62,064 nt of DNA from a virus (lineage: Duplodnaviria > Caudoviricetes): positions 1 through 62,064 of IMG/VR virus record IMGVR_UViG_3300030060_002483; one strand, 5' to 3'. Positions 1,986 through 61,375 of this stretch are shown here, piece by piece (position 1 is the stretch's first letter; each line of letters begins with the position of its first letter). The translations under genes were made by a program, and so were the position numbers. The notes below the pieces were generated by a model that saw nothing but the letters and a program-made list of their open reading frames with translations, ran no database searches and was not told where the DNA came from.

Positions 1986-2451
1986 GTTACCACTGCATTA
2001 TAAAATAATCATAGCTTGGGCTATAGTTTTATTAGTAGGTATTGTTAGCGTAAACATAAAAGCAGATACTATAACCTTTAAGTTCAAAAACCCTTCATTT
2101 AGTGGAGTAGGAACTTCTAGTCATTACCTTACGATAGAAAATCAAGAATTTAACCGTAAAATGACTATAAAAGAAGAGATCAAAGCTTTACAGGAACAGA
2201 TAGAAAGAGATAAAGAAAACACAACTCTAGCTCGTTTTATTAGGAACCTTGAGAGCCGTATCTATGCACAGCTAAGTAGACAACTAGTGGAAAATTTATT
2301 CGGTGAAACACCTAGTGATAAAGGTACGTTAACTTTAGAGGGTAACACTATAGACTATAGTATTGAAGACGGAATAATAACTTTAACTATTACAGACCCA
2401 GATGGAAATGTCACCACGATACAGTTGCCTGTTGGCAATTTTACTTTCTAG
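1966..2451 (+). CDS. csgF: Curli assembly protein CsgF-like
   Basis: Signal peptide then DTITFKFKNPSFSG, matching the CsgF N-terminus (TMTFQFRNPNFGG type); C-terminal ITITDPDGNVTTIQLP; lies upstream of csgG. Confidence 0.85.
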   Translation: MTKGKIKLPLHYKIIIAWAIVLLVGIVSVNIKADTITFKFKNPSFSGVGTSSHYLTIENQEFNRKMTIKEEIKALQEQIERDKENTTLARFIRNLESRIYAQLSRQLVENLFGETPSDKGTLTLEGNTIDYSIEDGIITLTITDPDGNVTTIQLPVGNFTF

Positions 2452-3971: not shown

Positions 3972-4998
3972 TATAGGAGATATATCCGAGCTTTCAGGTT
4001 ACGCTGAAGTATTAAGAGATAAACCGTACGAAGCTGAACTAGAGTTTGCTATACGTAGCAACGATCAAGCTGTAACTAAAAACGGTAGGTTAGGTATACA
4101 GTTTTTAGACGACTCAGTAGTACGTTTAACAGAACACTCAAAACTACTTATCAATGAGTATGTTTACGACCCTGACCCTAGTAAAGCTAAAATGTCACTT
4201 AATTTTGCTTTAGGTACAGCTAGGTTTATAACGGGTAATTTAAACCGTATAGATAAACAAAACATAAAACTCACAACACCGACAGCAAACATAGCCATAC
4301 GTGGAACAGATTTTACAGCTACTGTTGATGAGTTAGGCAGGAGTTTGATAATACTTCTGCCAGACTCAATGGGTCTTTCAAGTGGTGAGATAGAGGTGGT
4401 AACTGCTATGGGTAGTGTTATATTAAATAAACCTTATGAAGCTACTACAGTTAGTGTCTTTGAATCAGTTCCTAGTAAACCTGTTATACTTGATCTTACC
4501 TTAGATATTATTGATAACATGTTGATAGTGAGTCCGCCTAAAGAAGAAATACTCGTTGAAGAAGAAACTAGTACTACTAAAACAGTAAGTTTACTAGACT
4601 TCAATGATTTAGATATAGATTATTTAGCTGAAGATTTTTTAAATACAGATGAACTTGAGTTTACTGAGCTCGATATAAATTACTTAGATGTAAACTTTCT
4701 AGAAGATTTACTAGATATCATAGATGCTTTAGCTATAGATGAAGAAGAGGATCAACTAGCTTTAGCAACTGGTGTTAATATTAGCGGTACGTTAATAGGT
4801 CAAGACCCCGATACACAAATAACTACTTTAGTTACTGGTCAAGTTATTAGTTTACGTCGTGCGGTAAGTGAGTCTGTACGTTTAGATTTAAACAGCGGTA
4901 ATAGTTACACGGTTATATTAATACAAGACGGTGTATCAAACGTAGTTAAAATAAACGGTGGTGGTGATTCAATAATAACTATTAAACAAAGCGGTTGA
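3886..4998 (+). CDS. FecR-domain periplasmic protein with acidic C-terminal region
   Basis: Signal peptide; FLDDSVVRLTEHSKL and TPTANIAIRGTDF are FecR-type motifs. Confidence 0.85.
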   Translation: MTGLKSFLMATVVLCALYKTTKAQAQVVNIGDISELSGYAEVLRDKPYEAELEFAIRSNDQAVTKNGRLGIQFLDDSVVRLTEHSKLLINEYVYDPDPSKAKMSLNFALGTARFITGNLNRIDKQNIKLTTPTANIAIRGTDFTATVDELGRSLIILLPDSMGLSSGEIEVVTAMGSVILNKPYEATTVSVFESVPSKPVILDLTLDIIDNMLIVSPPKEEILVEEETSTTKTVSLLDFNDLDIDYLAEDFLNTDELEFTELDINYLDVNFLEDLLDIIDALAIDEEEDQLALATGVNISGTLIGQDPDTQITTLVTGQVISLRRAVSESVRLDLNSGNSYTVILIQDGVSNVVKINGGGDSIITIKQSG

Positions 4999-14776: not shown

Positions 14777-16812
14777 TGGCTGTAGGTGATATAGTAGATT
14801 TAGATGAAATACTAGAAGGTTACACACCTATGGTAGATCCGCAGTTTAGCCCAGAAGTTAGCAGAGCAGCAGTAAAAGATTTAAATTTTTTTGAAAGACC
14901 TAGCCAAGAAGAAATAGCTAGAGACTTATACGGTATAACAGCAGAGAGTGCACCATCGGCAACATTAGGATCTACTTTATTAAGTACAACTTTTGGAGAC
15001 ATAGCAGCACAAAGAGCACTTGGACCGTTTTATAATTTATTAAATAAAGATAGTCCACCTGTTGATATAGTAAAAGATGCTAATTTTTTACCTAAAGATC
15101 AATTTGAAAGAGGTCAAAAGGCTCTACTACTTGAGTATTACCAAGACAGCAGTCTTAGGGAACTCGACCCTAGAATAGACCCCACCACTAATAGAATGAC
15201 CTACATTAGACCTGAAGACGGTAAACGTATTTACGTTAACGCACCTGGAGTTGATTTAGCAGATTTTAAAACTAGCTTTATAGAACCCTTAGCACTTGAT
15301 TTAGTTGGTGCCGTGGGTGGTGGTGCTTTAGGGTTACAAGCAGAAGCACGAGGCAAAATAGGTAAATTCGCTAGTGGTGCTATAGGTGCTTTATTCGGTA
15401 GTAGTGCAGCTGAAAGTTTAGGTTTAGGTACTGCAGGTCAGGCAGGGGTAGGAACAGCAGGAGCAGCAGTAGGCTACGCTTCACCCACTTTAGCTTTGAG
15501 TGCTGAAGGTGCTTTTTTAACTCATATGTTATGGAGAAAAGCTAATCTAGAAGGTTTAAGGGAAAGAGGTATATTAGACGAAACTTATACCGACGAAAAA
15601 ATATTAAGAACAGCAGTACAAGACGCCTCTATAGTAGGTGGTACTGAACTAGTAGGCGGAACTTTATTCGCTGGTTTAAGTAAATTAATAGGTGCCAACC
15701 CAGCTAGTGTAGGTATAAGTAGAGAACAATTTGAAACTGCCTTAGATACGGTTAAAACTATGCGTAAAGAAGCTAGTACTCCACAAGAAAAAGAGTTATT
15801 AGATAACTTAACCGTACCCGAAGTTTTAGAAGTAGCAGGAGTTGACGCACCGTTTAAAATACCGTACATGAAAGCAGGTATAGAACGTTTAGGTCAAAGT
15901 CCACAATTAACCTCAAACGCAGTTTATAGAGAAATACTAGAAGAACAAACAAGAAGAACTAAAGCGATGGGGGATTTTTTTGAGAGTACAGGTATTGACC
16001 CAGCTATCTTTAAACCAGTAGACGCCACTAAAGCTAAACAAGGTTTCGGTGAGAGTATGCTCAGCTACGCCGATGATAAAGTTTTACCTAACGCTAAACC
16101 TAACCAAAAAGCCCTAATAAACCTCTTTAAAAACAATGAAGGTGAGCCAGAAATGATTTTTGGTAGCGTATGGAAGCCACAATCAGTGAGTTTAAACCAA
16201 GCTTTAATAGGTAAACTAACTAGAAAAGGAGACGAAGCTAGTAAGGACGTATTTAAAAGTTTAATCTATAAAGACTTTTTACAAAACACCGTTGACGGTA
16301 ACGGTAAGTTTGTTTCAGGGAACGTTGATAAATATCTTAGACAATACTCAGACTCATTAGGAGTTTGGTTTGGTGATGATATGGTAAAGGGTTTACAAAG
16401 TTATAACACCTTACTTAAAAAAATTGATACGGGAGCCGTGAAAGTACCAGAAGGCATTGTTCTTAATACGGTTAAAAAAATGGTCAATGATTTAGTTAGA
16501 GCTTACGTAGGTATCTTCACTAGAGAGGGTCGTGTAGTGACTGCTTTAACTAGAGGAGCAGATAGAGCTAAATTAGGTAACTATGAAAAATTAATACTAG
16601 ACCCAGAACTATTAGCTGAAAGAATAGCTAAAAGAGAGTTTTTTGATGACCCTGATATTAGGTTATTAGCTAGATTTTTAAGTAGAGGTTACGGTCAAGA
16701 CAGGTTTATAACCCCAGACGATACAATAATTTACGGGGAAACACCTTTAGCTGAAGAGCAAGATAAGGTAAACTTAGAAGTACTAGACAGCATTTTAGCG
16801 GAGTTTGAATGA
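14776..16812 (+). CDS. Large putative internal virion protein
   Basis: 678 aa with Gly/Ala-rich hydrophobic segments; translationally coupled. Confidence 0.55.
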   Translation: MAVGDIVDLDEILEGYTPMVDPQFSPEVSRAAVKDLNFFERPSQEEIARDLYGITAESAPSATLGSTLLSTTFGDIAAQRALGPFYNLLNKDSPPVDIVKDANFLPKDQFERGQKALLLEYYQDSSLRELDPRIDPTTNRMTYIRPEDGKRIYVNAPGVDLADFKTSFIEPLALDLVGAVGGGALGLQAEARGKIGKFASGAIGALFGSSAAESLGLGTAGQAGVGTAGAAVGYASPTLALSAEGAFLTHMLWRKANLEGLRERGILDETYTDEKILRTAVQDASIVGGTELVGGTLFAGLSKLIGANPASVGISREQFETALDTVKTMRKEASTPQEKELLDNLTVPEVLEVAGVDAPFKIPYMKAGIERLGQSPQLTSNAVYREILEEQTRRTKAMGDFFESTGIDPAIFKPVDATKAKQGFGESMLSYADDKVLPNAKPNQKALINLFKNNEGEPEMIFGSVWKPQSVSLNQALIGKLTRKGDEASKDVFKSLIYKDFLQNTVDGNGKFVSGNVDKYLRQYSDSLGVWFGDDMVKGLQSYNTLLKKIDTGAVKVPEGIVLNTVKKMVNDLVRAYVGIFTREGRVVTALTRGADRAKLGNYEKLILDPELLAERIAKREFFDDPDIRLLARFLSRGYGQDRFITPDDTIIYGETPLAEEQDKVNLEVLDSILAEFE

Positions 16813-18299
16813 GCATAGGTAGTTTTTTCGGTAGAGGTGGCGGGTTTTACGGTATAAATCCTATGGTTCGTCCTTCACCTTTTAGTGCGCCACCACGTTT
16901 ACAAACTCAAGGTCCAGAATCGCTGAGAAGGTTTGGTCTCAACCAAGACATGTATAGACCTCAACCTGCTATATCTCTCCCTGCTGGACCAGTACAATAC
17001 GTAGGCGGAAGCCCAAACTTTAATTATAGAGGTCCACGTTTTGAACCGCCAGAGCCACTACCACCTGGAGAGGGGTTTATAGATGAAGGTGGTAACGGTA
17101 ACGGTAGACCTAAACCACCGCCTTCAATCGGTGGTCCAGGTCCAGGTCCAATAGATCCGCCTCCAGGAACACGACCACCAACGCCACCACAACCACCACA
17201 ACCACCACAACCACCTAGATTTGGTTTTGGGTTAGGTAATTTCGGTAGTTTTTTCGGTAATCAAAATCCGTTTATGAGTAACTTCGGCGGACTAAATCCT
17301 TATTCAAGTTATGGGTTTGGCGGAGGATTAGGTGGATTCGGAGGAGGAATGCAAGGAATGTACCCTTCTTTTGGCTTTAACCCTTACAATACATTTATGG
17401 GAGCTTTAGGCGGAGGAGGTTTTCCAGGGATAGGTAGACCACCGATAGGAGCACCTATTAGACCGTCACCGCCAGTAATAGGTTTCCCGCCACCGTTTAT
17501 GCCTAGACCTATACAAAGACCTATGCCTATGCCTCAACCTATGCCTATGCCCGTACGTGGAGGAATTGTGCCTCACGGTGGTTTAGGTAGTATTCAAATG
17601 AATGTACCAGAGCAACTACAACAACCACATGGCTATTTGAGTGGTGGAGACGTAGATAAAAGAAAAAGAGAGAACATAATTAATCCACCAAGAACGGATA
17701 CTGACCCTAATAATATGATGGCTCAACTTAGTGCGTTACTGGCTAGAACTATACGACCTTATATAACTGGGGAAACACCAGAACCCCCACCAGGAAAACC
17801 GCCTGTTAAACCACCTATAGATCCACCACCACCTCCGCCTCCGCCTCCGCCACCGCCTATAGATCCACCACCACCGATCAAACCACCGCCACCGCCTATA
17901 GTTCCACCGCCTATAGATCCGCCACCACCACCGATCAAACCACCGCCACCGCCTTATGATCCACCAATCAAACCACCCGTTAAACCACCTATACAGGTAG
18001 GACCACCTGTGGGTATGCCTTTACCTACGCCTACGCCTAGACCACCTATAGCTATAGGACCTATGCCTCAACCACCTTCGCCCTTTCCTATAAGACCGCC
18101 TATGCCTAAACCCAGACCACCCGTGAGTGCTGTAGGTATGCGACCTGTGGCTACTTTTAATATGAGCGACCCTCAAGGTATATTAAGAGATCTACAAGAA
18201 ATGTCAAACGAAGATGATAAGTTAATGAGCGGTTTAGGTTTATTAGCTGGTGGCGTAGATGACGAAGCTCTTGAAATTATAGATAGAGTATTAGGTTAA
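16809..18299 (+). CDS. Pro/Gly-rich low-complexity protein
   Basis: 496-aa uninterrupted ORF with poly-Pro, IDPPPP repeats and GFGG repeats; ATGA coupling. Confidence 0.7.
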   Translation: MSIGSFFGRGGGFYGINPMVRPSPFSAPPRLQTQGPESLRRFGLNQDMYRPQPAISLPAGPVQYVGGSPNFNYRGPRFEPPEPLPPGEGFIDEGGNGNGRPKPPPSIGGPGPGPIDPPPGTRPPTPPQPPQPPQPPRFGFGLGNFGSFFGNQNPFMSNFGGLNPYSSYGFGGGLGGFGGGMQGMYPSFGFNPYNTFMGALGGGGFPGIGRPPIGAPIRPSPPVIGFPPPFMPRPIQRPMPMPQPMPMPVRGGIVPHGGLGSIQMNVPEQLQQPHGYLSGGDVDKRKRENIINPPRTDTDPNNMMAQLSALLARTIRPYITGETPEPPPGKPPVKPPIDPPPPPPPPPPPPIDPPPPIKPPPPPIVPPPIDPPPPPIKPPPPPYDPPIKPPVKPPIQVGPPVGMPLPTPTPRPPIAIGPMPQPPSPFPIRPPMPKPRPPVSAVGMRPVATFNMSDPQGILRDLQEMSNEDDKLMSGLGLLAGGVDDEALEIIDRVLG

Positions 18300-19736
18300 C
18301 CAATCTTTATATTTTTCCTCACCTAATATAGTACTAGCTATTGATTGCTTTTTACGTAAAGCTTTTACTATCTTTTCATCTACTGTACGTTCACAAACTA
18401 TATCAATATAAGTAACTTTATTAGTTTGCCCTATACGATGAGCACGGTCTTCTGACTGTAAACGTTTTTCAAGGTCGTAATTATTACTGTAATAAATCAC
18501 TGTTTTAGCTTGAGTTAAAGTTATACCGAATCCACCTGTTTGGGTGTTACCCACAAAAAACCGTAACGGATTATTAGGGTCTTGAAACTTTTTAATTACT
18601 TCTTCACGGTCAACGTTACTCACATCTCCGTAGTAAGTACCCACACTATTTTCACCATACTGTTCAGATAACATAGTTTTAATTTTTTCTATGTCATGAC
18701 GGTAATTAGCCCAAATTATGGCTTTACCGTCTATTTCCTCTAGTATAGAGGACAATTCTGAGAGTCTTTGTGAGGGTAATTCGGTAATATACCCGTCATC
18801 AGTCCTTATGAATCCGCATGATATTTGATGTAAACGGGTTATTTGAGTCATTATGTGATTTATAGTTACTGATTTAGTATTAGCTAGTTTAGTATAAGCA
18901 AAACGTTGTAATTCTTTATAAGCTTTCTTTTGTTCATTAGTCATTTGTATAGTTCTACGTTGATATACTTTTTCAGGTAGATCTAAACAATCTTTTTTCA
19001 ACACCCTATGGCTAAACTTACCTAAACTTTCATTTAATTCTTCAAGGTTTTTATAACCTACCACTAATTTAAAAGTTCTACCTTGACCTGTCTTTTCTAT
19101 TAAATCTGCATACCTAGCCCTAAAAGAATAAAAACTACTAAACCCTAATAATGCAGGATCTAAAAACAAACACTGACTATATAAATCTAGGGGACTTTTA
19201 GTTACTGGTGAGCCAGTTAGTATTCTACGGTAATGAGCGTACTTACCTAACTGCATGCATGTTTTAGTTCTTTTAGCTTCAGGGTTTTTAATTGTAGTAC
19301 TTTCATCTACTATAAACATAGTTTTATTACTCATAACAAAACGTGCTGCAAACTCTTTACCTTTTTTAGTGCTTAGTGCTTCAATGTTCATCACTAATAT
19401 CTTTAACCTAAAATCTAAAGTAAATAATTTATCAAACTCTTTTTTTAATTTTTGTGTGTGGTTACTTGACCATTGCACTAAGTCGTACGTTACGTGTTCT
19501 GGTGTATGTATAGGTACTTCATTTTTTACCCAAGTACCGTACACACCCTTAGGTGCTACTATTAATACATTATAAATTTCACCCTTAGCGTATTGATGTA
19601 CAAAAGTGTCTACTATAACTTTTGACTTACCACAGCCCATCTCCATAAATAAAGCGTACTCTTTTTTATCATAGGATTGCTCTAACGCTTCTAATTGATG
19701 AGCATAAGGCTCAGTCTTAAATATAAAATCTGTCAT
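18291..19736 (-). CDS. SNF2-family (superfamily 2) helicase
   Basis: MEMGCGKS, IVDEST, LTGSP, QSEDRAHRIGQ. Confidence 0.93.
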   Translation of the reverse strand: MTDFIFKTEPYAHQLEALEQSYDKKEYALFMEMGCGKSKVIVDTFVHQYAKGEIYNVLIVAPKGVYGTWVKNEVPIHTPEHVTYDLVQWSSNHTQKLKKEFDKLFTLDFRLKILVMNIEALSTKKGKEFAARFVMSNKTMFIVDESTTIKNPEAKRTKTCMQLGKYAHYRRILTGSPVTKSPLDLYSQCLFLDPALLGFSSFYSFRARYADLIEKTGQGRTFKLVVGYKNLEELNESLGKFSHRVLKKDCLDLPEKVYQRRTIQMTNEQKKAYKELQRFAYTKLANTKSVTINHIMTQITRLHQISCGFIRTDDGYITELPSQRLSELSSILEEIDGKAIIWANYRHDIEKIKTMLSEQYGENSVGTYYGDVSNVDREEVIKKFQDPNNPLRFFVGNTQTGGFGITLTQAKTVIYYSNNYDLEKRLQSEDRAHRIGQTNKVTYIDIVCERTVDEKIVKALRKKQSIASTILGEEKYKDWLT

Positions 19737-24810: not shown

Positions 24811-25299
24811 ATGAATATATTTTACGTACATGAAGACCCAGCATATGCTGCTAGTTACTTACCAGATAAGTTAGTGGTTAAGATGCCTTTAGAGTCAGCT
24901 CAAATGCTTAGTACCGCACACCGTATACACTCAGGTGATGAATATTGTGATGCCCGTGGTATTTATAAAACTGCCTATAAAAATCATCCTTGCACTATAT
25001 GGACTAGGGAAACTAGTGATAACTATACTTGGTTATATAATCATTTTATTTTCTTATGTTACGAGTATGAAAGTAGGTATAACCGTGAACACTTAACGTT
25101 TACTAAGTTAGCTAAAGAGTTAGGTAAGCTACCTAAAGGTATAAAGATAGCTGATATGACTGAGTTACCACAAGCTATGCCCGATCAATATAAAAATGAT
25201 GACCCAGTGCAAGCTTACCGTGATTACGTAGTAAATGAAAAAACTTACGCACAGTGGAACAAAATACCTGACAGACAACCAAGTTGGTGGACTATATGA
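24811..25299 (+). CDS. Pyrimidine-dimer DNA glycosylase-like protein (Pyr_excise/DenV-related)
   Basis: MNIFY...DKLVVKMPLESAQMLST, NHPCTIW, PQAMPD...AYRDY. Confidence 0.8.
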   Translation: MNIFYVHEDPAYAASYLPDKLVVKMPLESAQMLSTAHRIHSGDEYCDARGIYKTAYKNHPCTIWTRETSDNYTWLYNHFIFLCYEYESRYNREHLTFTKLAKELGKLPKGIKIADMTELPQAMPDQYKNDDPVQAYRDYVVNEKTYAQWNKIPDRQPSWWTI

Positions 25300-26129
25300 G
25301 TAATTACCCTAAAACTGATTTTAATAACTATATGATAGAGCGTCACAGCATATACGAACGTAGAGCTGAAGGTCAAGCTTATCCTTGGACTGATGACCTT
25401 ATATTAAAAGAATATAGTTTTTGTAACGTGTACCGTGAACTAGATAGAGTTACTATATGGATAAGGGAAAACTGGCGTGAGCCTTACGCTGACCACCCTA
25501 ACTTACCGTTCGCTATGGCTATGGCTAGGCAAATCAATTGGCCAGAGACATTAGAGGATATAGGTTTCCCTGAACATTGGAACCCTAGTAGAGTTAAAGC
25601 TATAATGCAAGGTAGAATGGATAGAAAAGAAAAAGTTTATACAGGTGCCTATATGTTAACGGGAACCTTAGGAGGGACTAAAGTAGAGCAAACAGTGGAT
25701 AAAATTCTCACCCCACTCTACGAGTCCCCTCCTAGAATTATACCTAACTCATTAGAAGAAACATGGAAACGTTATCTACCGTATCCTGGATTTAGTGGTT
25801 TTATGGCGTATGAAGTAGTTACTGATTTACGACACACTAAACACTTAGAAAACGCTGAAGATATAATGACGTGGGCTAATCCTGGTCCAGGAGCTAAACG
25901 TGGACTAAATAGGATACACCGTAGACCGTTAGAAAAAAGCATACCTAAATCACAATTAATCAGTGAGATGAGAGAGTTACTAGAGTTATGTAACATGGCT
26001 CCTTTACCGTTAGAGATGAGGGATATAGAACATTGTTTATGTGAGTTTGATAAGTATGAAAGAGTACGGTTAGGTCAAGGTAAACCACGTGCTAAATATA
26101 AACCTAAACTACAGGAGGAGTTATTGTGA
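25296..26129 (+). CDS. aGPT-Pplase-like (alpha-glutamyl/putrescinyl thymine pyrophosphorylase clade 1-like) DNA base-modification protein
   Basis: PWTDD.IL..YSFCNVYRELDRVT, GFMAYEVVTDL, GPGAKRGL, IEHCLCEFDKY. Confidence 0.8.
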   Translation: MSNYPKTDFNNYMIERHSIYERRAEGQAYPWTDDLILKEYSFCNVYRELDRVTIWIRENWREPYADHPNLPFAMAMARQINWPETLEDIGFPEHWNPSRVKAIMQGRMDRKEKVYTGAYMLTGTLGGTKVEQTVDKILTPLYESPPRIIPNSLEETWKRYLPYPGFSGFMAYEVVTDLRHTKHLENAEDIMTWANPGPGAKRGLNRIHRRPLEKSIPKSQLISEMRELLELCNMAPLPLEMRDIEHCLCEFDKYERVRLGQGKPRAKYKPKLQEELL

Positions 26130-26923
26130 AAATTTATATACCTACCAGAGGCAGGGCTGACAACCAAGTAACGTTGTCTTTTTTCCCTGAGAGTATGCGT
26201 GAAAACGTTGTATTAGTAATAGACGCTGATGAGGAGGAACAGTACGTAAATAGTGACGGTCATTATAAATATATCTGTGAGTATATGGTAGTACCTGAAG
26301 ACATAAAGGGTATATCTAAAAAGCGTCAATACATACACGAAAACACTACGGACAATAAAATAGTTATGTTAGATGATGACTTACGTTTTTATATACGTAA
26401 GTCTACTAATGATTGGCATTTACGTTACTTAGAGCCTGATGAGTACCCTGCTTTATTCGGTTTATTAGATACTTGGTTAGATACTTACGCTCACGTAGGA
26501 GTGAGTGCTAGGGAAGGTAATAACAGGGTAGAACACTTAGCCGTAGAAAACACAAGATACATGAGAGTATTAGGGTATAACCTAGATATGTTTGATGACG
26601 TTGAGTTAGGTAGGGTAGAAGTTATGGAAGACTTTGATATTAACCTACAATTATTACGTCAAGGTAAACCAAGTAAGATAAGCTACTATTACGCACAAGG
26701 TCAAAAAAGTTCTAATGCTGCTGGTGGTTGTAGTGAGTGGCGTACCATAGATGTGCATAATGAGGGTGCTGAGCGTTTACACAACCTACATCCTGAGTTT
26801 GTTAAAATAGTAGAAAAAGAAACTAAAACAGCTTGGAACGGTATGCCTCGTAAAGACGTACAAGTACAATGGAAAAGGGCATTTAATAGTAGCCCAGATT
26901 TTAAACAAGGAGGATTATTCTAA
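26126..26923 (+). CDS. GT-A glycosyltransferase, TET-associated (TAGT/JGT-like)
   Basis: KIYIPTRGR, MLDDD, EDFD..LQLL..G, GGCS. Confidence 0.75.
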   Translation: MKIYIPTRGRADNQVTLSFFPESMRENVVLVIDADEEEQYVNSDGHYKYICEYMVVPEDIKGISKKRQYIHENTTDNKIVMLDDDLRFYIRKSTNDWHLRYLEPDEYPALFGLLDTWLDTYAHVGVSAREGNNRVEHLAVENTRYMRVLGYNLDMFDDVELGRVEVMEDFDINLQLLRQGKPSKISYYYAQGQKSSNAAGGCSEWRTIDVHNEGAERLHNLHPEFVKIVEKETKTAWNGMPRKDVQVQWKRAFNSSPDFKQGGLF

Positions 26924-27924
26924 TGCAAGTAATAAATTGTCAAAACGTTAATGATGGGTTTATCAAAGCTCTTGACTTAATTAAAAATAACCATGTGGTT
27001 ATAGGTAGTAGGGTAGGGGAAACACTAGAGTGTCCTACTCCTGTAACCACTGTTTATAACAACCCTACAGAAAGAGTTTTATTTGAAGAGATACGAGACG
27101 CTAACCCTTTCTTTCATTTTATGGAAAGTTTATGGATGTTAGAGGGTCGTAATGATTTAGCATACGTAAAAAGATATAATAAGCGTATGGAAGAATACAG
27201 TGATGACGGTGAAACTTTATGGGGTGCTTACGGTTACAGGTGGATAAAACACTTTGGTAAAAATCAATTAGATTTAATAGTAAGTGAATTAAGATCTAAC
27301 CCTAATAGTCGTAGGTGTGTACTACAAATGTGGGACGCTAGTCAGGACTTAGGTAGGGACTGTAAGGACGTACCTTGTAATACCGCCATATACTTTAAGG
27401 TTAGGGACGGTAAGCTTAATATGACCGTTAGTAATAGGTCTAACGACGTTATATGGGGTACTTTTGGAGCTAACGTAGTACATATGTCCATATTACAGGA
27501 ATATGTAGCCAGTGCTATAGGTATTGAAGTAGGTAAGTATTATCAAATTAGTGATAGCTTTCATGTGTATACTAACATATTTAATGACATGTATCAAGAC
27601 CTACAACGTGAAGATGCGTTTGATTTTTACTCTATGAAACATTATAATAACCCATATAACAATCAAGCACTTAAACCATACAAGATGATCAACACTGATA
27701 TACCTACATGGACTGCAGATTTACATAAGTTTTTAAACAGAGTAGCTTTTGGTGATAAGTTTTTTGATGACCCTTTTTTCACTAAGGTCGCTTGTCCCCT
27801 ACAAGACGCTTGGTACTTATATAAACAAAAAGAGTATGACTTTAGTTTACATGAAGTACAGTGTTGTGAAGCAGGTGATTGGGCGTTAGCAGGTTTTGAT
27901 TGGATTAATAGAAGGTTAAAATGA
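26923..27924 (+). CDS. Thymidylate synthase-superfamily enzyme, probable dUMP hydroxymethylase
   Basis: GAYGYR, SRR, catalytic PCN, RSND.IWG...N (Asn at the dUMP specificity position), SFHVY; base-modification context. Confidence 0.8.
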   Translation: MQVINCQNVNDGFIKALDLIKNNHVVIGSRVGETLECPTPVTTVYNNPTERVLFEEIRDANPFFHFMESLWMLEGRNDLAYVKRYNKRMEEYSDDGETLWGAYGYRWIKHFGKNQLDLIVSELRSNPNSRRCVLQMWDASQDLGRDCKDVPCNTAIYFKVRDGKLNMTVSNRSNDVIWGTFGANVVHMSILQEYVASAIGIEVGKYYQISDSFHVYTNIFNDMYQDLQREDAFDFYSMKHYNNPYNNQALKPYKMINTDIPTWTADLHKFLNRVAFGDKFFDDPFFTKVACPLQDAWYLYKQKEYDFSLHEVQCCEAGDWALAGFDWINRRLK

Positions 27925-28613
27925 GTGGTAAAATACCTCAGTGGTCTTACAGTAGACTAACTACGTATGAGGGTTGCCCTAAAAAAGCCTACTACAGCTC
28001 AGTTAAAAAGATAAGAGAGCCAGGAAATAAATACATGGAACGTGGTAAAGAAGTTCATAAAAACTGTGAGAATTATATAAGAGGTCACATAGATGAACTA
28101 CCAACTACACAGCTTAAAGATTTTCAAATGGGTTTTGATGAGTTACGTAGAATGTATTTAGAAGGCTCAGTGATATGTGAAGGTGATTGGGCTTTTGATA
28201 AAGAGTGGTTAACTACAGGTTGGTTTGACCCAGACACATGGGGCAGAGCTAAAGTCGATGCTTTTGTACACGACGCTAGTCAGCCTACACAAGCTAGAGT
28301 TATAGATTTTAAAACAGGTAAGTATGAAGGTAACCAAGAAAGCCATAGAGAACAGTGTGAATTATACGGTGCGGTTGTGTTAGCTAGATATCCAGAAGTA
28401 GAAACTATAGTAACGGAGATGTGGTATTTAGATCATAATAAAATAGAACGTTACATGTATAACCGAGACAGTATAAAAGCACGTAAAGAAAAGATAAATG
28501 ACCGTGCTATTATTATGACCACTGCTGAAGAGTTTCCAGCTAACCCTAGTAGTTTTAAATGTAAGTGGTGTTATTACGGTAAAGAAAAAATATGTGCAGA
28601 CAGATATGATTAA
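27921..28613 (+). CDS. PD-(D/E)XK exonuclease (Cas4/RecB-like)
   Basis: WSYSRL...CP, G..VH, VIDFKTGK, CKWC...C. Confidence 0.85.
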   Translation: MSGKIPQWSYSRLTTYEGCPKKAYYSSVKKIREPGNKYMERGKEVHKNCENYIRGHIDELPTTQLKDFQMGFDELRRMYLEGSVICEGDWAFDKEWLTTGWFDPDTWGRAKVDAFVHDASQPTQARVIDFKTGKYEGNQESHREQCELYGAVVLARYPEVETIVTEMWYLDHNKIERYMYNRDSIKARKEKINDRAIIMTTAEEFPANPSSFKCKWCYYGKEKICADRYD

Positions 28614-29172
28614 GTTTATTAAAGGACATTTTAAAAACAGTGACCCCAATATAAAAGACTGGGACGAGCCTACTATACGTGAGTTTAACGGTAAAAAAGT
28701 GGTAGGTAGACCTACTAAGGGATACGGTAGTAGCACGTTTACGTATGCGGGTAAAACCTATGAGCCTACACCGTGGACTACGCCTATGTATAAAATAAGG
28801 TTAGGCGTAGAAGCGTTAATAAATAAAGAGTGTACGTTTTGTCTTTGTGGGTATTACGGTGAAGACGGTAAAGGTTTACCGCATCACAGCGATACAGTAC
28901 CCACGTTAGATGATTTAGTAGTATCAATATCTTTTGGTGGTCCTAGAGTTTTTCAGTGGCGTGAATATCATTACGATATAAAAGAAAAGACAGACACTAG
29001 TGAAGTTAAGTTTGATTGTTACTACAACACACCGCCAGCAACTAACTACATACTGGAACATGGTGACGTCATAATCTTTGACGGTCATAGTCAGATGCGC
29101 TCTACTCATGCGGTACTACCTATGGAACATGCTACAGAACGTATAAACTTAACTTTTAGGACAGGTATTTAA
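28606..29172 (+). CDS. AlkB-like 2OG-Fe(II) dioxygenase
   Basis: HSD, SISFGGPRVF, LEHGD, HAV, RINLTFR. Confidence 0.88.
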   Translation: MIKFIKGHFKNSDPNIKDWDEPTIREFNGKKVVGRPTKGYGSSTFTYAGKTYEPTPWTTPMYKIRLGVEALINKECTFCLCGYYGEDGKGLPHHSDTVPTLDDLVVSISFGGPRVFQWREYHYDIKEKTDTSEVKFDCYYNTPPATNYILEHGDVIIFDGHSQMRSTHAVLPMEHATERINLTFRTGI

Positions 29173-33145: not shown

Positions 33146-33609
33146 AAAATACAGATAATACTAGATGTGTACGCTGTAAGGGTAAGATAGGCTACAGGTA
33201 CAGAAAAGAAGGTATAGTTGTTTGTGAAAAATGTAACCCAAATAAAAGTCCGTATCAAGTAGGTAGAGCTAAAGTATCAGAAAAAGACGGTAGAATATAC
33301 GAAGGATTACGTAAACAATTTTTAGGAGCACACCTAGATGATATTAATATTATTGACCGTAGTAACGATTACCGTGTGGATCATGGTATACTTGGTTTAG
33401 CAGAGCAGTTTGAAGAACGTGATAAAGTGGCTAGGCGTGAATATGAGAATAAAAGAGTTCACGACGCTTTAATAACTATGCATGAAGCTATAATAGAAAA
33501 CAAGGGTGAAAGCAGTAGTACACAAAGATACCGTAGACGTAAATTAATACCTGAAAACTTGAGGGATACCGCAGGTAAGTTTATGTTAGGTATGAAAGGT
33601 TGGAGATGA
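33133..33609 (+). CDS. Zinc-ribbon-containing hypothetical protein
   Basis: CVRC...CEKC. Confidence 0.55.
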   Translation: METIENTDNTRCVRCKGKIGYRYRKEGIVVCEKCNPNKSPYQVGRAKVSEKDGRIYEGLRKQFLGAHLDDINIIDRSNDYRVDHGILGLAEQFEERDKVARREYENKRVHDALITMHEAIIENKGESSSTQRYRRRKLIPENLRDTAGKFMLGMKGWR

Positions 33610-34073
33610 AGAAAAAGAAGTTAACCCCACGCCAAGAAAAATACGCACAAAACGTAGCTAAAGGTATGAGCAAGAAAGACGCAGCACAAAAAGCAGGTTA
33701 TAGCGAAAAGAATGCAGCTAGAGCGGGTAGTGTGCTTGACAGTAAAGCCAACCCTTTAGTAAGCCAACGTATACAAGCCTTACAGAAAAAAGCAGCCAAA
33801 AAAGTAGAACTTGATTTATCTACTCACCTTACAGATTTAAAAGACATACGTGAGGGAGCTATGCGTAATGGTGCGTGGTCTGCTGCCGTTACTGCAGAAG
33901 TAGCTAGGGGTAAAGCAGCAGGATTATACATTAACCGTAGTGAGCTAGTAGTGAATAAAGTAGAGACTATGGATAAAGAACAAATACTAGACCGTTTAAA
34001 AGAACTTTACTATGAGACTGGAGGTATATTACCAATGGGCACTATCATAGAAGGTGATTCAGAAACCTCGTAA
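33606..34073 (+). CDS. terS: Terminase small subunit
   Basis: LTPRQEKY...AAQKAGYS HTH, then AAVTAEVARGKAAGLY. Confidence 0.8.
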   Translation: MKKKKLTPRQEKYAQNVAKGMSKKDAAQKAGYSEKNAARAGSVLDSKANPLVSQRIQALQKKAAKKVELDLSTHLTDLKDIREGAMRNGAWSAAVTAEVARGKAAGLYINRSELVVNKVETMDKEQILDRLKELYYETGGILPMGTIIEGDSETS

Positions 34074-34081
34074 AATAATAC

Positions 34082-34110
34082 TTTACATCCTTATACAATT
34101 TAACTAACCT
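34082..34110 (+). promoter_or_regulatory. Sigma70-like promoter TTTACA-17-TAACCT
   Basis: Same -35 as the other phage promoters; precedes the structured non-coding region. Confidence 0.5.
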
Positions 34111-34115
34111 ATAAC

Positions 34116-34345
34116 TAGGTTATAAACTGCCTACTATTTGATATCGGTTTATAATTTAGGTGGTTTGAAGACACCAACGAAGAAGTACGCTTCGTTATTA
34201 TTCTTTTATGTCATAGTAGAACCACCGATTTTTAAATTAGGGTTGAACTAATTGAAGACACCAACGGAGTGCTCTGTCTTTACCTATATTTTAGCAGAGT
34301 ACTACAAGACGTCGTAGTAGATTAGTTTGACCCGCTCTTTTATTT
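34116..34345 (+). ncRNA. Candidate structured small RNA with two tandem copies of one motif
   Basis: TTGAAGACACCAACG occurs twice and GTC(A/G)TAGTAG twice, each pair enclosed by a different closing stem; upstream hairpin and downstream T-tract. Confidence 0.55.
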
Positions 34346-34372
34346 ATTAGCAATAGAAGGTAATATATTCAT

Positions 34373-34684
34373 ATGGCTTTAACCTTATTATTCAGCAACG
34401 GTAAAAAACTCAAAAAACCTATAACCAAAGAAAAGACAAAGACATGGTATGTCCCGTATACCACTATAGAAGTTGAGATGCACAAGATAGAAGCTGATAC
34501 GTATCAAGAAGCTATTAGTAAAGCAACTCTACGTAACCGTAAGGGCAAGGTAAAGACATACACACTACAAGAAACACACTCAACCGACGCTTTTTTAACT
34601 CCGCACGTTAAAGAGCCTAATGAATTATTCAGTAGGTTTATTCATATGTTTAACGTCACGGTTGAAGATTTTGATAATACCTAG
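34373..34684 (+). CDS. Hypothetical early protein
   Basis: ORF. Confidence 0.5.
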   Translation: MALTLLFSNGKKLKKPITKEKTKTWYVPYTTIEVEMHKIEADTYQEAISKATLRNRKGKVKTYTLQETHSTDAFLTPHVKEPNELFSRFIHMFNVTVEDFDNT

Positions 34685-34744: not shown

Positions 34745-34921
34745 ATGAATGAAGATATTAATAAGTCTATAGCTACTTTAGAAAAAGCTGTACAATATTA
34801 TATTAATAATAACAATGACCCTTTAGAGTGTAACTCACTTTATGGTAGCTTTGTTATGGTTAAACTAGCTTTAGAGCAGTTTGCTTTACTAGATACACTG
34901 AGTAAAACTACTAATGAGTAA
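34745..34921 (+). CDS. Hypothetical early protein
   Basis: GGAGG RBS before ATG 34745; promoter-like TTGACG-16-TATACT at 34694. Confidence 0.55.
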   Translation: MNEDINKSIATLEKAVQYYINNNNDPLECNSLYGSFVMVKLALEQFALLDTLSKTTNE

Positions 34922-35108
34922 GTGTAAGTTATGTAAAGAGGACATGCCTAAGGGTAGAGCGGAGCTAGGTTATATAACCTGCTTAGAATGTGGTGAGATG
35001 GCTGCACAAATACTCGCTAGTAAGCGTAGAAAACAAGTAGCCCCAGCCTATAATAAAGGTGCTTACCAATTTATAACTATCAATGATTTAGAAACTATAG
35101 GAAGGTAG
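34914..35108 (+). CDS. DksA/TraR-like C4 zinc-finger protein
   Basis: CKLC...R..LG...CLEC followed by PAYNKGAYQ. Confidence 0.55.
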   Translation: MSKCKLCKEDMPKGRAELGYITCLECGEMAAQILASKRRKQVAPAYNKGAYQFITINDLETIGR

Positions 35109-56220: not shown

Positions 56221-59200
56221 ATGGCAACATATGTAAATGATTTAAGGTTAAAAGAAATAACCACGGGAGATGAGTCAGGTACTTGGGGAGACTCTACTAA
56301 TACTAATTTAGAGTTAATAGCAGAGGCGTTTAGTTTTGGCACTGAAGCTATAACAACTAACGCAGATACACATACTACAACAATAGCAGACGGCTCTACC
56401 GATCCAGGTAGATCTATTTATTTAAAATACACAGGTACACTTGATTCAGCTTGTACCATAACTATAGGACCTAACACTGTATCTAAACTATGGTTGATTG
56501 AAAACGGTACATCAGGTTCACAAAACATTATTATTTCTCAAGGATCTGGCGCAAACGTCACGATTCCAGCAGGTCATGTAAAAGCTGTATATTCAGACGG
56601 AGCAGGATCTGGTGCAGCTATAGTAGATGCTTTTACTAACCTAAATCTAGGCGGTACTACTACAGTAGATGACTTAACTATCTCTGATGATCTTACAGTA
56701 ACGGATGACATGTCTATCGGTGGTGCTTTAACACTTACAGGTAATGCAGACTTTAATGGCGATTTAGACGTAGACGGTACAGCTAATCTAGATGTAGTTG
56801 ATATAGATGGAGCTGTAGATATGGCATCTACTTTAGCTGTAGGTGGTGTTGTAACTGCAAACGCAGGTGTAGTTGTAGATAACATTACTATAGACGGTAC
56901 AGAAATAGATTTATCAAGTGGCGATCTTACGATTGATGTTGCAGGAGATATTATCCTTGATGCTGATGGTTCAACTATAAGCATGAAAGATGGTGGTACA
57001 ACCAGATACACATTTAATTTAGATGCAACGCCTAATCTTGTTATGGCAGGTGGAAACGCCAGTATAACTGCTTCTACATCTGATGCAGACTTATCATTTA
57101 TAGGTAATGATGGTGGTTCAGATGTAACTGCCCTTACCCTTGATATGTCAGATGCTGGTACTGCAACCTTTAATCACGATATAAAACTTGGTGATGGTGG
57201 TATAGCTAAATTTGGTGCAGGTGGAGATTTACAAATTTTTCATGACGGTTCAGATAGTTTTATAAATGATACAGGTACAGGTAATTTACTAATTAGAGCA
57301 GCAGACCAATTTCTTTTACAAGACACAGGTGGGAAAACACACATAAAATCTGTAATAGATGCACAAACTGAACTGTATCATAACAACTCTAAAAAACTAG
57401 AAACAACAAGTTCAGGTGTAGACGTTACAGGTACAATCAATGGTGCAGGTATATTATCTAATGCTGCTAATTTTGGTGAAGGTCTTTTAATTAGTCAAGA
57501 TGCAGGTACAGGTACACTTTCATCTGCTAATAGAAACACAGGATTTGGTTATGAAGTTTTTGATGACTTAACATCTGGTGACGATAATACAGCTTTTGGT
57601 CAACAAGCATTAGCTGCATTAACAACAGCTGGACATAATACAGCTGTAGGCTCTAATGCATTAGAATCAAATACCACAGGTGCTGAAAATACTGCAGTTG
57701 GTTCAGCATGTTTAGATGCTAATACTACAGGTACAGATAATACTGCTATTGGATTTGCTTCATTAGGAAATAACACAACAGCAAGTAGAAATACTGCTGT
57801 TGGTAATGTAGCCTTAAATGAAAATACAACTGGTGCAGATAATACTTCTGTAGGTAAATCAGCATTAGAAAAAAATACTACAGGCACTCAAAACACAGCA
57901 GTTGGTAGTTTAGCTTTAGATGCAAATACTACAGCTAGTAACAATACTGCTATGGGTCATAATGCTTTAACAGCAAATACTACAGGTGCTGAAAATACAG
58001 CAGTTGGTGCTGAAGCATTAGAAGCTAATACTACTGGAACAAGAAACACAGCAGTTGGTCAGCAATCTTTAGAAGCAAACACAGAAGGCACAGACAATTC
58101 TGCTTTTGGTAAAAATGCATTAGCATCAAATACTACTGGAATTACTAATAGTGCTTTTGGTCGTAATTCATTGTTTGCAAACACCACAGCTGATAACAAT
58201 ACAGCTGTTGGTTATAACTCATTAGCAGCAAACACTACAGGAGACCAAAACGTTGCAGTAGGTTCTTTAGCTGGAGATGCAATTACTACAGGATCACAAA
58301 ACACAGCAATTGGTTATGCATCTTTAACAAGTGCAACTACAGCAAGTAGTAATACTGCTATAGGTAGAGCAACATTAAATGAAAATAGCTCAGGAGCTAG
58401 TAATACAGCTGTTGGACATGATGCTTTAGAATCAAACACGACAGCCTCAAACAACACAGCAGTAGGTGCACAAGCTTTAACTGCTAACACCACAGGTGCT
58501 AGTAACACAGCAGTAGGTTCAGGTGCTTTAGTAGCAAACACAACAGCAAACAGTAATACTGCTGTAGGTTTTGATGCTCTAAATGACAACACAACAGGTG
58601 CAAATAATACTGCTATAGGTGCAGGAACTTTAGATAAAAATACTACAGGAAGTTTTAATGTTGCATTAGGTTCAGCAGCTTTAGACGCTAATACTACAGG
58701 TGCTAACAACACAGCAGTTGGTTACTCTGCTTTATCTGCAACCACTACAGCCGACAACAATACAGCAGTAGGTATGCAAGCATTAAACGCAAACACTACA
58801 GGTGCTCAAAACGTAGCTGTTGGTCAAGGTTCATTAGAAGCAAATACCACAGGAGCTTCAAATACTGCTATTGGCAGAACTGCTTTATTATCAAACACTA
58901 CAGGTGCTAATAATACTGCTTTAGGTAGTAATGCCTTAGATGCTAATACAACTGCGGATGGCAATACAGCAATAGGTAAAGATTCTCTAGGAGCGAATAC
59001 AACAGGTCATTCTAATACTGCTATTGGTAAAGACTCATTAAAACTTAATGTAGATGGTAACAGGAACACAGGGCTTGGTTTTGGAGCTTTAAATGTAGCA
59101 AACTCACCAGATGATAATACTATGGTGGGATATTTTGCAGGTGTATCAATTACTACTGGAAATTCAAATACAGCAGTTGGTTCTTTTGCACTTGATGCTA

Positions 59201-61092
59201 ACACTACCGCAAGTAATAACACAGCTATAGGTTATCAATCTCTAAGTGCAAACACGACAGCAAGTGCTAACGTTGCTGTTGGTAAAAGAGCTTTAGCGAG
59301 TAACACTACTGGTACTAATAACGTAGCTGTAGGTACAGATGCCTTAGAAAATCACACAACAGGTTCAGATAATATAGCCGTAGGTAAAAATGTTGCTAAT
59401 GCTTTAACTACAGGTAACACTAATATAGCTATTGGTGGTCAAGCTATGAACACTAATACAGTAGGCGATAGAAACGTAGCTATAGGTTATTCAGCTCTAG
59501 AAACTTACAACCCAGCTAGTAATGAAGATTCATATAACGTAGCAGTCGGTTTTGCTGCTCTAGAGGCAGATACCACAGGTAAAAATAATACTGCTATAGG
59601 TGGTAATGCTTTGTTAGTAAACACAACAGGTGGCAATAATACTGCTGTTGGTACATCTGCCTTACTTGCTAATACTACAGCAAGTAGCAATACAGCAGTT
59701 GGTAAATCAGCAGCATCAGCAATAACTACAGGAACAGGGAATGTAGCTGTTGGAGCACAAGCTTTGGAGTCTACTACTACTTCTAATGGTAATACAGCAT
59801 TAGGTTATATATCTTTACATAGCAACACCACAGGTGCAACAAACACAGCAGTAGGTCAAGAGGCTTTACAAAAGAATACAACTGCAAACTTTAATGTTGC
59901 AGTCGGATATCAAGCCTTAGAAGAAAACACCACAGGTGCAAATAACACAGCTATAGGTACTAATGCTTTAGATGATAATACAACAGCAAGTAATAACACA
60001 GCAGTTGGTAGAGCAGCATTAAGTGCTAACACTACAGCTAGCGATAATACTGCTATAGGTTATCAAGCTTTAGAAGCAAACACCACAGGTACAAGGAATA
60101 CTGCTATGGGTAGTGTAGCATTAGATGCTAACACTACAGGTGATGATAATACTGCTTATGGTTATGCTGCTTTAGGTGTAAATACAACTGGTATAAACAA
60201 TACTGCTATAGGTGTTGATGCTTTAGATGCTAACACCACAGCTTCTAATAACACAGCAGTTGGTTATAAATCTTTAACAGCAAACACTACAGGCACTAAT
60301 AACGTAGCACTTGGTAGGACTGCTTTATCAACAGCAAGTACTGGAAGTGCTAATACAGCTATTGGAAAGGATGCTTTAGCCTCATTAACTACATCTGATA
60401 ATAATACTGCTTTAGGTAAATCAGCAGGTACTAACGTAACTACAGGCGAACAAAATACTTTATTAGGACAAGTATCAGCTGGGTCTTTAACTTCTGGTGA
60501 CGACAATATAGCTATAGGGCATGATGCTGCTGATAACTTAACTACTGGTCAACAAAATATTGCTATCGGTGTTGATACATCTTTATCAGCTGCAGATGGT
60601 GCTAATCAAATAGTTATGGGACAAAATGTTACCTGTGTTGGTAATAGTAACTTTACATTTGGTGATGGCACTACAGATTCTAATATTGCTTTTGGTGCAA
60701 CTTCTATAACAGCACCATCAGATGTAAGACTAAAAGAAGATATACAAGACGAAGAAGTAGGTTTAGATTTTGTAAATGATTTAAGACCTGTAACTTTCCT
60801 TTGGAAAAAAGAAAAAGATATACCTTCGGATATGAAAGCTTATAAAGAAGATTCAGAAGCAAGAACTATGAATGGTAAATATAATCATGGTTTTATAGCA
60901 CAAGAAGTTAAAGAAGTGATTGATAATCACAATTTAAAAGAAGGCTTTGATATGTGGTCAGAAGATGAAACAGATGGAAGGCAAAGAATTGCACCATCAG
61001 CTATGATGTCTATAATGGTTAAAGCAGTACAAGAACTGTCTACGCAAGTAGATGAATTAAAAGCCGAAATACAAACCTTAAAGGAGGATTAA
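56221..61092 (+). CDS. Long tail fibre with about 70 14-aa NTAVG..AL..NTTG repeats and a peptidase S74 chaperone; allele B tip
   Basis: Repeats are visible in the translation; SDVRLKEDI and HGFIAQEV. Confidence 0.9.
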   Translation: MATYVNDLRLKEITTGDESGTWGDSTNTNLELIAEAFSFGTEAITTNADTHTTTIADGSTDPGRSIYLKYTGTLDSACTITIGPNTVSKLWLIENGTSGSQNIIISQGSGANVTIPAGHVKAVYSDGAGSGAAIVDAFTNLNLGGTTTVDDLTISDDLTVTDDMSIGGALTLTGNADFNGDLDVDGTANLDVVDIDGAVDMASTLAVGGVVTANAGVVVDNITIDGTEIDLSSGDLTIDVAGDIILDADGSTISMKDGGTTRYTFNLDATPNLVMAGGNASITASTSDADLSFIGNDGGSDVTALTLDMSDAGTATFNHDIKLGDGGIAKFGAGGDLQIFHDGSDSFINDTGTGNLLIRAADQFLLQDTGGKTHIKSVIDAQTELYHNNSKKLETTSSGVDVTGTINGAGILSNAANFGEGLLISQDAGTGTLSSANRNTGFGYEVFDDLTSGDDNTAFGQQALAALTTAGHNTAVGSNALESNTTGAENTAVGSACLDANTTGTDNTAIGFASLGNNTTASRNTAVGNVALNENTTGADNTSVGKSALEKNTTGTQNTAVGSLALDANTTASNNTAMGHNALTANTTGAENTAVGAEALEANTTGTRNTAVGQQSLEANTEGTDNSAFGKNALASNTTGITNSAFGRNSLFANTTADNNTAVGYNSLAANTTGDQNVAVGSLAGDAITTGSQNTAIGYASLTSATTASSNTAIGRATLNENSSGASNTAVGHDALESNTTASNNTAVGAQALTANTTGASNTAVGSGALVANTTANSNTAVGFDALNDNTTGANNTAIGAGTLDKNTTGSFNVALGSAALDANTTGANNTAVGYSALSATTTADNNTAVGMQALNANTTGAQNVAVGQGSLEANTTGASNTAIGRTALLSNTTGANNTALGSNALDANTTADGNTAIGKDSLGANTTGHSNTAIGKDSLKLNVDGNRNTGLGFGALNVANSPDDNTMVGYFAGVSITTGNSNTAVGSFALDANTTASNNTAIGYQSLSANTTASANVAVGKRALASNTTGTNNVAVGTDALENHTTGSDNIAVGKNVANALTTGNTNIAIGGQAMNTNTVGDRNVAIGYSALETYNPASNEDSYNVAVGFAALEADTTGKNNTAIGGNALLVNTTGGNNTAVGTSALLANTTASSNTAVGKSAASAITTGTGNVAVGAQALESTTTSNGNTALGYISLHSNTTGATNTAVGQEALQKNTTANFNVAVGYQALEENTTGANNTAIGTNALDDNTTASNNTAVGRAALSANTTASDNTAIGYQALEANTTGTRNTAMGSVALDANTTGDDNTAYGYAALGVNTTGINNTAIGVDALDANTTASNNTAVGYKSLTANTTGTNNVALGRTALSTASTGSANTAIGKDALASLTTSDNNTALGKSAGTNVTTGEQNTLLGQVSAGSLTSGDDNIAIGHDAADNLTTGQQNIAIGVDTSLSAADGANQIVMGQNVTCVGNSNFTFGDGTTDSNIAFGATSITAPSDVRLKEDIQDEEVGLDFVNDLRPVTFLWKKEKDIPSDMKAYKEDSEARTMNGKYNHGFIAQEVKEVIDNHNLKEGFDMWSEDETDGRQRIAPSAMMSIMVKAVQELSTQVDELKAEIQTLKED
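59933..60009 (+). repeat. 77-bp exact direct repeat, copy 2
   Basis: Identical to bases 1-77. Confidence 0.95.
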
Positions 61093-61093
61093 T

Positions 61094-61375
61094 ATGGCAA
61101 CAGTGACAGAAGTATTAGATGCAGCGTTACATAGCGTTGCGTTAATAGACAGTATAGATGCAGATGCGTCTAGCGTATTAGATTGTGAAGGACTTACACA
61201 GTCTGAAATAAACGAGTTGGTACAAAGAAACGTAGATCATTTAGAAATCATTTTATTATATGAACCAGTTGATAGTGAAGATGATACACCTAATGTTAAA
61301 GGTTCATCTAGCAGTAAAAAAACTGACTGTTCTAATGCAATTACTAAAGGAAAAGCTTACATTGCTGCAAATTAG
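61094..61375 (+). CDS. Tail-fibre-associated protein (paralog/allele of 943-1224)
   Basis: 87/93 aa identical. Confidence 0.75.
   Translation: MATVTEVLDAALHSVALIDSIDADASSVLDCEGLTQSEINELVQRNVDHLEIILLYEPVDSEDDTPNVKGSSSSKKTDCSNAITKGKAYIAAN

Follow-up and report, generated by a model that had tools for sequence, protein, structure and literature searches.

What does a phage keep in a gap between two genes that has no reading frame and is filled with repeated hairpins? The question arises from a locus in the window, the whole stretch of 62,064 bases that was analysed, which is a complete IMG/VR virus record with genes almost all on the + strand. Its ORF-free gap of 299 bp (34074-34372) runs from the stop of a Terminase_2-type ORF to the ATG of a 103-aa ORF, in agreement with an earlier note that had placed a gap of about 300 bp after terS and had read it as a promoter-driven, two-domain non-coding RNA. 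Our findings show that the gap carries non-coding, strand-biased, independently folding hairpins whose loops are conserved, which occupy one locus per genome and are exchanged among phages. The window contains a rare, partly degraded version of a shuffled hairpin array and not a fixed two-domain RNA.

The gene upstream of this hairpin cassette is a 157-aa ORF resembling small terminase subunits (33600-34073, +; Pfam PF03592 Terminase_2, 2e-08; PHROG terminase small subunit, 1.9e-16). The 103-aa ORF on the 3' side (34373-34684, +, with its ATG at 34373) matches no Pfam or PHROG family, and the Atlas returns only viral hypothetical clusters (score 0.87). A TAATAT sequence, a possible second -10 box, lies six bases 5' of this ATG (34361-34375, +). 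It is present upstream of the ATG in every homologue of the 103-aa ORF, and in two loci that have no cassette (L008 and L128) it belongs to a complete promoter, TTTACA-16-TAATAT, immediately 5' of the ATG. This position suggests that the mRNA of the 103-aa ORF may have a very short leader or none. A coding reading of the gap itself was rejected: the lone 37-codon frame, which starts with TTG (34138-34251), is shortened or replaced in relatives, and no ORF is conserved among the cassette variants.

The large terminase of the window is nearest to that of Pelagibacter phage HTVC027P (61.3% at the amino acid level), followed by HTVC023P (54.7%). Positions 1933-3283 hold curli secretion components, CsgF-like (PF10614, 3e-19) and CsgG-like (PF03783, 7.5e-52), followed by a FecR-domain protein and then a CHASE2 adenylate/guanylate cyclase (4995-6737); this set is unusual cargo in a podovirus-like marine phage. 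A cluster at 25284-29172, composed of a 5-hmdU DNA kinase helical domain, a TET-associated glycosyltransferase, a thymidylate-synthase-like protein, a PD-(D/E)XK/Cas4-like nuclease and a 2OG-Fe(II) oxygenase, suggests that thymidine in the phage DNA may be hypermodified. A tail-fibre-like protein of 1623 aa (56221-61092) is composed of repeats of 51 nt (17 aa) and has a Peptidase_S74 chaperone domain at its end. A shorter paralogue at 1-941 extends past the start of the record, and the 3' ends of the two genes, together with the DNA downstream of them (859-1158 and 61010-61309), are 91% identical across 300 nt. The sole long minus-strand gene encodes an SNF2-type helicase (18291-19736), and the sole local reversal of GC skew coincides with it.

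Components and fold of the cassette

On the + strand, the cassette is preceded by a promoter-like site consisting of TTTACA (34082-34087), a 17-nt spacer and TAACCT (34105-34110), from which transcription would start at about 34117, the foot of the first hairpin. The promoter described in the earlier note is therefore present in sequence, although weaker than claimed: its -10 box is poor, and the site is absent from the list produced by a consensus promoter scan. Relatives carry TTTACA or TTTACC boxes at the equivalent site, with better -10 boxes, and small gaps neighbouring this one in the window contain TTTACA-17-TATAGT (at 32688) and TTTACA-17-TATTAT (at 35611).

The first hairpin, H (34115-34159, +), has inverted repeat arms at 34115-34127 and 34147-34159. 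The earlier note had listed it as a hairpin at 34116-34158; the inverted repeat is real, but it is the remnant of a larger domain, X, of which only the outer stem is left. It is followed by two modules of one kind, which we call type A and which were recognized by inverted repeats, by fold and by R1, a covariance model built from six unit variants. Unit 1 (34159-34226, +, 68 nt; R1 match of 71.4 bits) is closed by a lower stem of 7 bp, GGTGGTT/AACCACC (34159-34165 / 34220-34226), inside which come a TGAA/AGTAG internal loop, a GAC/GTC helix, an asymmetric loop and a 7-bp upper stem, AACGAAG/CTTCGTT (34176-34182 / 34190-34196). The T-rich linker that follows, GATTTTTAAATTA (34227-34239, +), belongs to an inverted repeat and is paired in the minimum-free-energy fold; it could serve as a terminator tail or could form an extended stem with 34152-34158.

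Unit 2 (34240-34333, +, 94 nt; R1 match of 74.4 bits) has a lower stem of 13 bp, GGGTTGAACTAAT/ATTAGTTTGACCC (34240-34252 / 34321-34333), which pairs fully when two G-T pairs are included. Its upper stem is 9 bp long, and the upper part is the portion that differs among relatives. A T-rich tract resembling a terminator tail (34334-34348, +) comes after the unit, as the earlier note had reported. In a relative with an empty site (L003), this tract is kept, and just the final bases are left of unit 2.

The two units have in common an 18-nt 5' core and an 11-nt 3' core, set inside stems that are unrelated yet complementary. The cores appear as direct repeats of 18 nt at 34165/34252 (94% identical) and of 11 nt at 34210/34311 (91%). 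An exact 14-mer of the 5' core occurs at 34166 and 34253 only in the whole 62 kb, and a 10-nt version of the 3' core taken alone occurs at chance frequency (10 matches against 10.0 expected). Two possible pairing partners were rejected. For an antisense target of the 14-mer core, the best complement (16506-16519) has two mismatches, and the eight matches found overall are within the range of shuffles; for the ATAGTAG core, the loop of hairpin H is complementary over 7 nt, no more than chance predicts in a region this large.

The region 34150-34350 folds at -52.4 kcal/mol on the + strand (z = -4.13), and none of 200 shuffles is as low, versus z = -3.25 on the - strand, where one of 200 is as low. 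The earlier note's view of an unrecognized structured non-coding element holds, with the + strand as the better one and with no family returned by the Rfam check. In an alignment of six type A unit variants, a set from very close relatives that is too small for a formal covariation test, and with the structure specified by hand, 92.7% of the cells are paired compared with 76.2% in shuffles, a value that none of 500 shuffles reaches; nine pairs are changed on both sides (3 of 500 shuffles). When the pairing partners are slid as a control, pairing falls to 30-50%.

The same pattern is seen within single comparisons. Between the lower stems of units 1 and 2, both sides are changed at six of eight pairs and pairing is kept, and a repeat search recovers every element of the two units, which bears out the earlier description of a repeated core within stems that differ yet pair. 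What the earlier note had claimed for the inner stem is likewise supported by a nested type A copy found in a relative: compared with unit 1, its upper stem has two double changes and one change from G-C to G-T around a loop that is nearly unchanged. The internal cores of type A remain unchanged while the stems covary; the GAC/GTC helix is invariant and is thus neutral as evidence of structure. Read on the + strand, the wobble pairs are of the G-U kind, apart from one C-A in X. Judged from the sequences, the compensatory changes and the G-U pairs favour a + strand RNA or a + single strand.

The internal loop can be compared with the loop E or sarcin-ricin (bulged-G) motif, the consensus of which places AGUA opposite GAA between flanking helices. 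GAA faces AGTA in five of the six type A variants, and in units 1 and 2 and three further variants a T-G pair prolonging the lower stem closes the outer side of this site. The likeness is a match by sequence only, and unlike loop E the site has two extra bases before the GAC/GTC helix. The sequence match named in the earlier note is therefore present in most variants, but it is not a constant of the module, because the nested copy is changed on both strands.

The array in related phages

Loci were collected by means of both flanking proteins and of DNA patterns. Nineteen of them, some of which are one contig present in two collections, extend to the 5' side of a 103-aa ORF homologue (L003-L009, L123-L134): eight have no cassette, seven have X with other modules and four have type A. 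The eight loci without a cassette keep the promoter and a few end bases, have the promoter directly before the ATG, or have nothing. The cassette is missing from phages whose flanking genes are 97-99% identical, and relatives that are more than 95% identical in these genes may have one unit, a shortened unit, a nested unit, other modules or no cassette. The cassette is thus accessory and dispensable, not essential.

At least 12 different arrangements were found at this one site among relatives and DNA sequencing runs. Two further hairpin types are found elsewhere in place of unit 1, flanked by the same stem feet. In unit 2, the upper hairpin can give way to an 11-base filler, a variant also present in DNA runs X3 and X6, or to the window's own hairpin H, as in L004 and DNA run X2. 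In L010, a second, diverged type A core is nested in the loop of the unit 2 upper hairpin. In run X6, at a depth of 3.2, the 5' half of unit 1 is joined to the 3' half of unit 2, so that the lower stem is impossible. The earlier idea of a two-domain RNA was correct in that the element is non-coding and structured, but the arrangement is not fixed, since relatives swap, nest or lack the units.

Type A is rare and is known from the window and five other records. A strict type A pattern gave 24 loci in IMG/VR, three of them real; the other 21 have no flanking motifs and look like chance matches in G+C-rich coding DNA. The earlier note had proposed a covariance model of the units and a search of viral metagenomes with it. 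R1 recovered only its training copies in 62 sources comprising 261,044 bases of related phage DNA.

The usual form of the array is led by domain X, followed by one to six hairpin modules whose types and order differ by phage, and it is found in marine relatives of the Pelagibacter phages HTVC027P and HTVC023P. X is a conserved domain of about 105 nt, which RNAalifold, applied to 24 distinct sequences (L107:902-1016, L138:530-646 and 22 other distinct copies, alignment A2), predicts to form a three-way junction of 30 pairs, seven of them with compensatory changes, whereas the loops are invariant. A scan of IMG/VR with the invariant loop gave 37 loci, 35 with full X context and two chance matches in coding DNA. 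With the covariance model of X (R2), three near-complete relatives each proved to have a single X, and HTVC027P to have none. In 19 of 73 loci from terS relatives, X lies inside the fetched flanks. In the window, the only R2 match is at 34116-34166 (25.3 bits, E = 3.5e-4, versus 129-138 bits for intact copies), from which we conclude that the hairpin at 34115-34159 is an X cut down to its outer stem. The window therefore has X reduced to hairpin H and both of its module slots taken by the rare type A.

The commonest module, type C (L107:1008-1074 and 12 other distinct copies, alignment A3), has 16 predicted pairs, four of them compensatory, and loops that are invariant across clades. Its 5' bulge contains an 8-nt palindrome that is kept when the two central bases change (GACTAGTC vs GACATGTC), and which could be a kissing or dimerization contact or a protein site.

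The surroundings of the array also vary. On the 5' side it is found after terS, a MazG-like gene or other ORFs, and on the 3' side the ORFs have at least four different N-terminal sequences by informal comparison. Arrays of up to six modules occur with no intervening genes. One clade has a new TTTACA-17-TAAACT promoter with a Shine-Dalgarno sequence right after its last module; in some phages, a ribosome-binding site directly follows the first module with no T-run, and some arrays are flanked by a promoter on both sides. Two comparisons illustrate the history of the modules. Between L018 and L026, terS is 76.6% identical in nucleotides, X 94.8% and the first module 100%, while between L018 and L016 the values are 97.3%, 86.0% and 75.7%, respectively. 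The history of the modules is uncoupled from that of the neighbouring genes.

Candidate functions of the array

The closest comparison is with the PeSL (promoter-early stem-loop) of T4-type phages. PeSLs are reported as intergenic elements combining a sigma-70-like promoter with a stem-loop that ends upstream transcription (PMC2839356, PMC4122927); they lie in hyperplastic regions, 5' of small genes whose function is unknown, in a composite terminator/promoter layout (PMC2839356). Near-identical phages differ by insertions, deletions and replacements at these sites, and recombination between them shuffles the modules (PMC2839356, PMC4122927). The cassette resembles them in marking points of insertion, deletion or replacement between close relatives. 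It may also join a sigma-70-like promoter to a stem-loop, with a weak TTTACA-17-TAACCT here and better boxes in relatives. It differs from them in its long two-tier hairpins, conserved internal loops, up to six modules and three-way-junction leader. PeSLs are short, simple stem-loops, reported at about 50 per genome, whereas here there is one locus per genome (X in three of three relatives; the type A core at this locus only).

Our preferred reading, held tentatively and at somewhat less than an even chance, is that of a cis-acting terminator/insulator and stability cassette with putative protein-binding internal loops, an ornate analogue of the PeSL. The cassette would be transcribed by host RNA polymerase, which would either start at the weak TTTACA promoter (34082) or read through from terS. 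Each unit folds separately into a lower stem with a U-rich tract, a conserved internal loop and an exchangeable upper hairpin. The G+C-rich lower stems with their tails would lie between transcription units as terminators or insulators that also protect 3' ends, and the next gene would be read from its own TAATAT box. The conserved internal loops (TGAA opposite AGTAG, then GAC/GTC) may bind a protein that tunes termination or protection, and the shared flanks would enable recombination, through which co-infecting phages could swap modules. A Pfam search over 70 ORFs of the window gave no reverse transcriptase, integrase, phage RNA polymerase, RNase III or Hfq-like protein as a candidate partner.

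Several features are consistent with the terminator/insulator reading. T-rich tracts follow the module stems, the module that abuts a promoter in another clade gives a PeSL-like layout, and both units have a T-rich tail after a G+C-rich stem foot, as intrinsic (Rho-independent) terminators do. They are unlike such terminators in that their stems enclose 54 and 68 nt instead of a loop of 3-8 nt, and in the one to four bases that separate stem from T-tract, which count against the reading, as do the ability of the unit 1 tail to pair upstream instead, the poor -10 box, and the phages whose first module runs straight into a ribosome-binding site. A terminator scan called neither unit, as their loops are over its 3-8 limit, and within the gap it listed a single site, the small inner stem of unit 1. 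We do not hold the terminator/insulator reading more firmly because the conservation of the loops suggests a sequence-specific partner. The conserved internal loops and the gene-free arrays of up to six modules are beyond the needs of a simple terminator and fit better with such a partner or with a role in trans.

A role in trans, which is possible but on balance doubtful, would make the array an accessory locus whose modules become stable small RNAs by release or termination, with loops that serve as a decoy or sponge for a protein of the host or the phage, such as a defence nuclease or a regulator that binds RNA. In this case it would be the RNA equivalent of a hypervariable early accessory or anti-defence locus. 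The loops and junctions of X and type A, invariant beside covarying stems, are in line with this, as are the identical modules in phages whose terS genes are only about 77% identical, the variation of cassette presence and module content among near-identical phages, the independence of the array from whichever gene is 3' of it, and the promoters that bound some arrays on both sides. Against it, type A is limited to six records, and a search of 185,579 species genomes for the X loop pattern returned 17 loci that all lack X context, so that this one motif gives no sign of a mimicked host RNA. The more specific proposal that the X-led array is a new kind of accessory locus, made of recombining single-site RNA cassettes that are each an aptamer-like decoy for a different host factor, we consider unlikely. 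If it were true, the ocean's most abundant group of pelagiphages would trade RNA modules in the way that anti-defence genes are traded, and type A, built on a loop-E-like platform, would be one of these decoys, of which the window has two copies.

The shuffling could also be neutral. Template switching or illegitimate recombination in a hyperplastic region may produce and rearrange hairpins as debris of a recombination hot spot, in which case the apparently compensatory changes would be single events and the conserved cores would reflect recent duplication, not selection. The nested type A copy in L010, hairpin H within unit 2 of another genome (L004), the chimera in run X6 with its unformable lower stem, the empty alleles and the narrow distribution all speak for such an origin. 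However, the upper stems of unit 1 and the nested copy differ at three separate pairs around a near-constant loop, the loops of X and type C are invariant across clades while their stems covary, and the wobble pairs are strand-biased. With these points taken together, we judge debris to be a decidedly unlikely account.

A cis-regulatory role that depends on X appears very unlikely. By analogy, X could be a processive antiterminator of the put type of phage HK022, or a riboswitch-like sensor, and the modules would be the terminators under its control; with X degraded in the window, its two units would merely terminate. Where the promoter is good (TTTACC-17-TATATT), X begins about seven bases past the -10 box, the modules are terminator-like, and the 5' strand of the second helix of X, CTACCTAC, is complementary by eye to GGTAG-type words in the internal loops of the modules. 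In one clade, however, X comes after a stop codon with no promoter near.

An element acting as DNA, whether a pac site, a replication origin or operators bound by TerS or another protein, can be nearly dismissed: it adjoins terS in this genome, and a 7-bp inverted repeat (TAACCTA/TAGGTTA) overlaps the -10 region of the 34082 promoter-like site, but G-T pairs favour hairpins on one strand only, GC skew shows no local change at the gap, and the cassette is absent from the phages with 97-99% identical flanking genes noted above. The packaging role suggested in the earlier note is unlikely because near-identical phages lack the cassette and because other clades have it away from terS, after MazG-like or other genes; a replication role is also unlikely.

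Other known systems share single traits with the array. Type III toxin-antitoxin loci of the ToxIN type have a promoter, repeated RNA units, a terminator and then an ORF, and the cassette shows a promoter-like site, repeated units, a terminator-like tail and an ORF in that order. Its units, however, are unequal (68 and 94 nt) and are not in head-to-tail register. A toxin-antitoxin reading was rejected, as eight of the 19 loci have the 103-aa ORF without a cassette, which a toxin neutralized by RNA would not tolerate. The RNase III hairpins of phage T7 early mRNA consist of a lower stem, an internal loop and an upper stem and are placed singly between cistrons, and the REP/BIME elements of enterobacteria are mosaic combinations of extragenic hairpin motifs dispersed in hundreds of copies. 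In contrast to the single T7 sites and the dispersed BIMEs, there is one array per genome here. GOLLD and ROOL are large, ornate, phage-associated RNAs of unknown function; the array has no Rfam match to either, and unlike them its architecture differs between near-identical genomes.

Novelty and implications

The hairpin array family is previously undescribed, as judged by Rfam 15 and a limited literature search. The whole window gave no Rfam 15 match at gathering scores. At E-values up to 10, the only match in 33950-34450 is to IMES-4 on the - strand, with 17.4 bits against a threshold of 48, and no family match was obtained to the small self-cleaving ribozymes (hammerhead, hairpin, twister, pistol, hatchet and HDV-like). 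The loci of six relatives had no Rfam match up to E = 1. ARAGORN found no tRNA or tmRNA in the window or in eight array-bearing loci, and a DNA-level search of INPHARED phages gave no match for the gap, for the 10 kb around it or for the leader formed by X and type C. The only metatranscriptome that shares words with this region (X20, 6% of sampled words) covers 34747-34960, outside the cassette.

A term search limited to two pelagiphage papers returned no mention of non-coding or intergenic elements. A catalogue of 8,495 candidate structured RNAs from IMG/VR is listed by Fremin et al. 2023 (PMC10690425). Six sample numbers of array loci are absent from the part of its supplement that could be searched, and an earlier prediction of X or type A there is possible.

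The analysis adds at least two covariation-supported RNA motifs that are new to Rfam, X and type C, with type A as a third and narrower one. The array that they compose is structured and single-copy, is far better conserved than its neighbouring genes, is reshuffled among near-identical genomes and is dispensable. These properties make it an experimental handle on early-gene regulation, or on the manipulation of SAR11-type hosts, by these phages.
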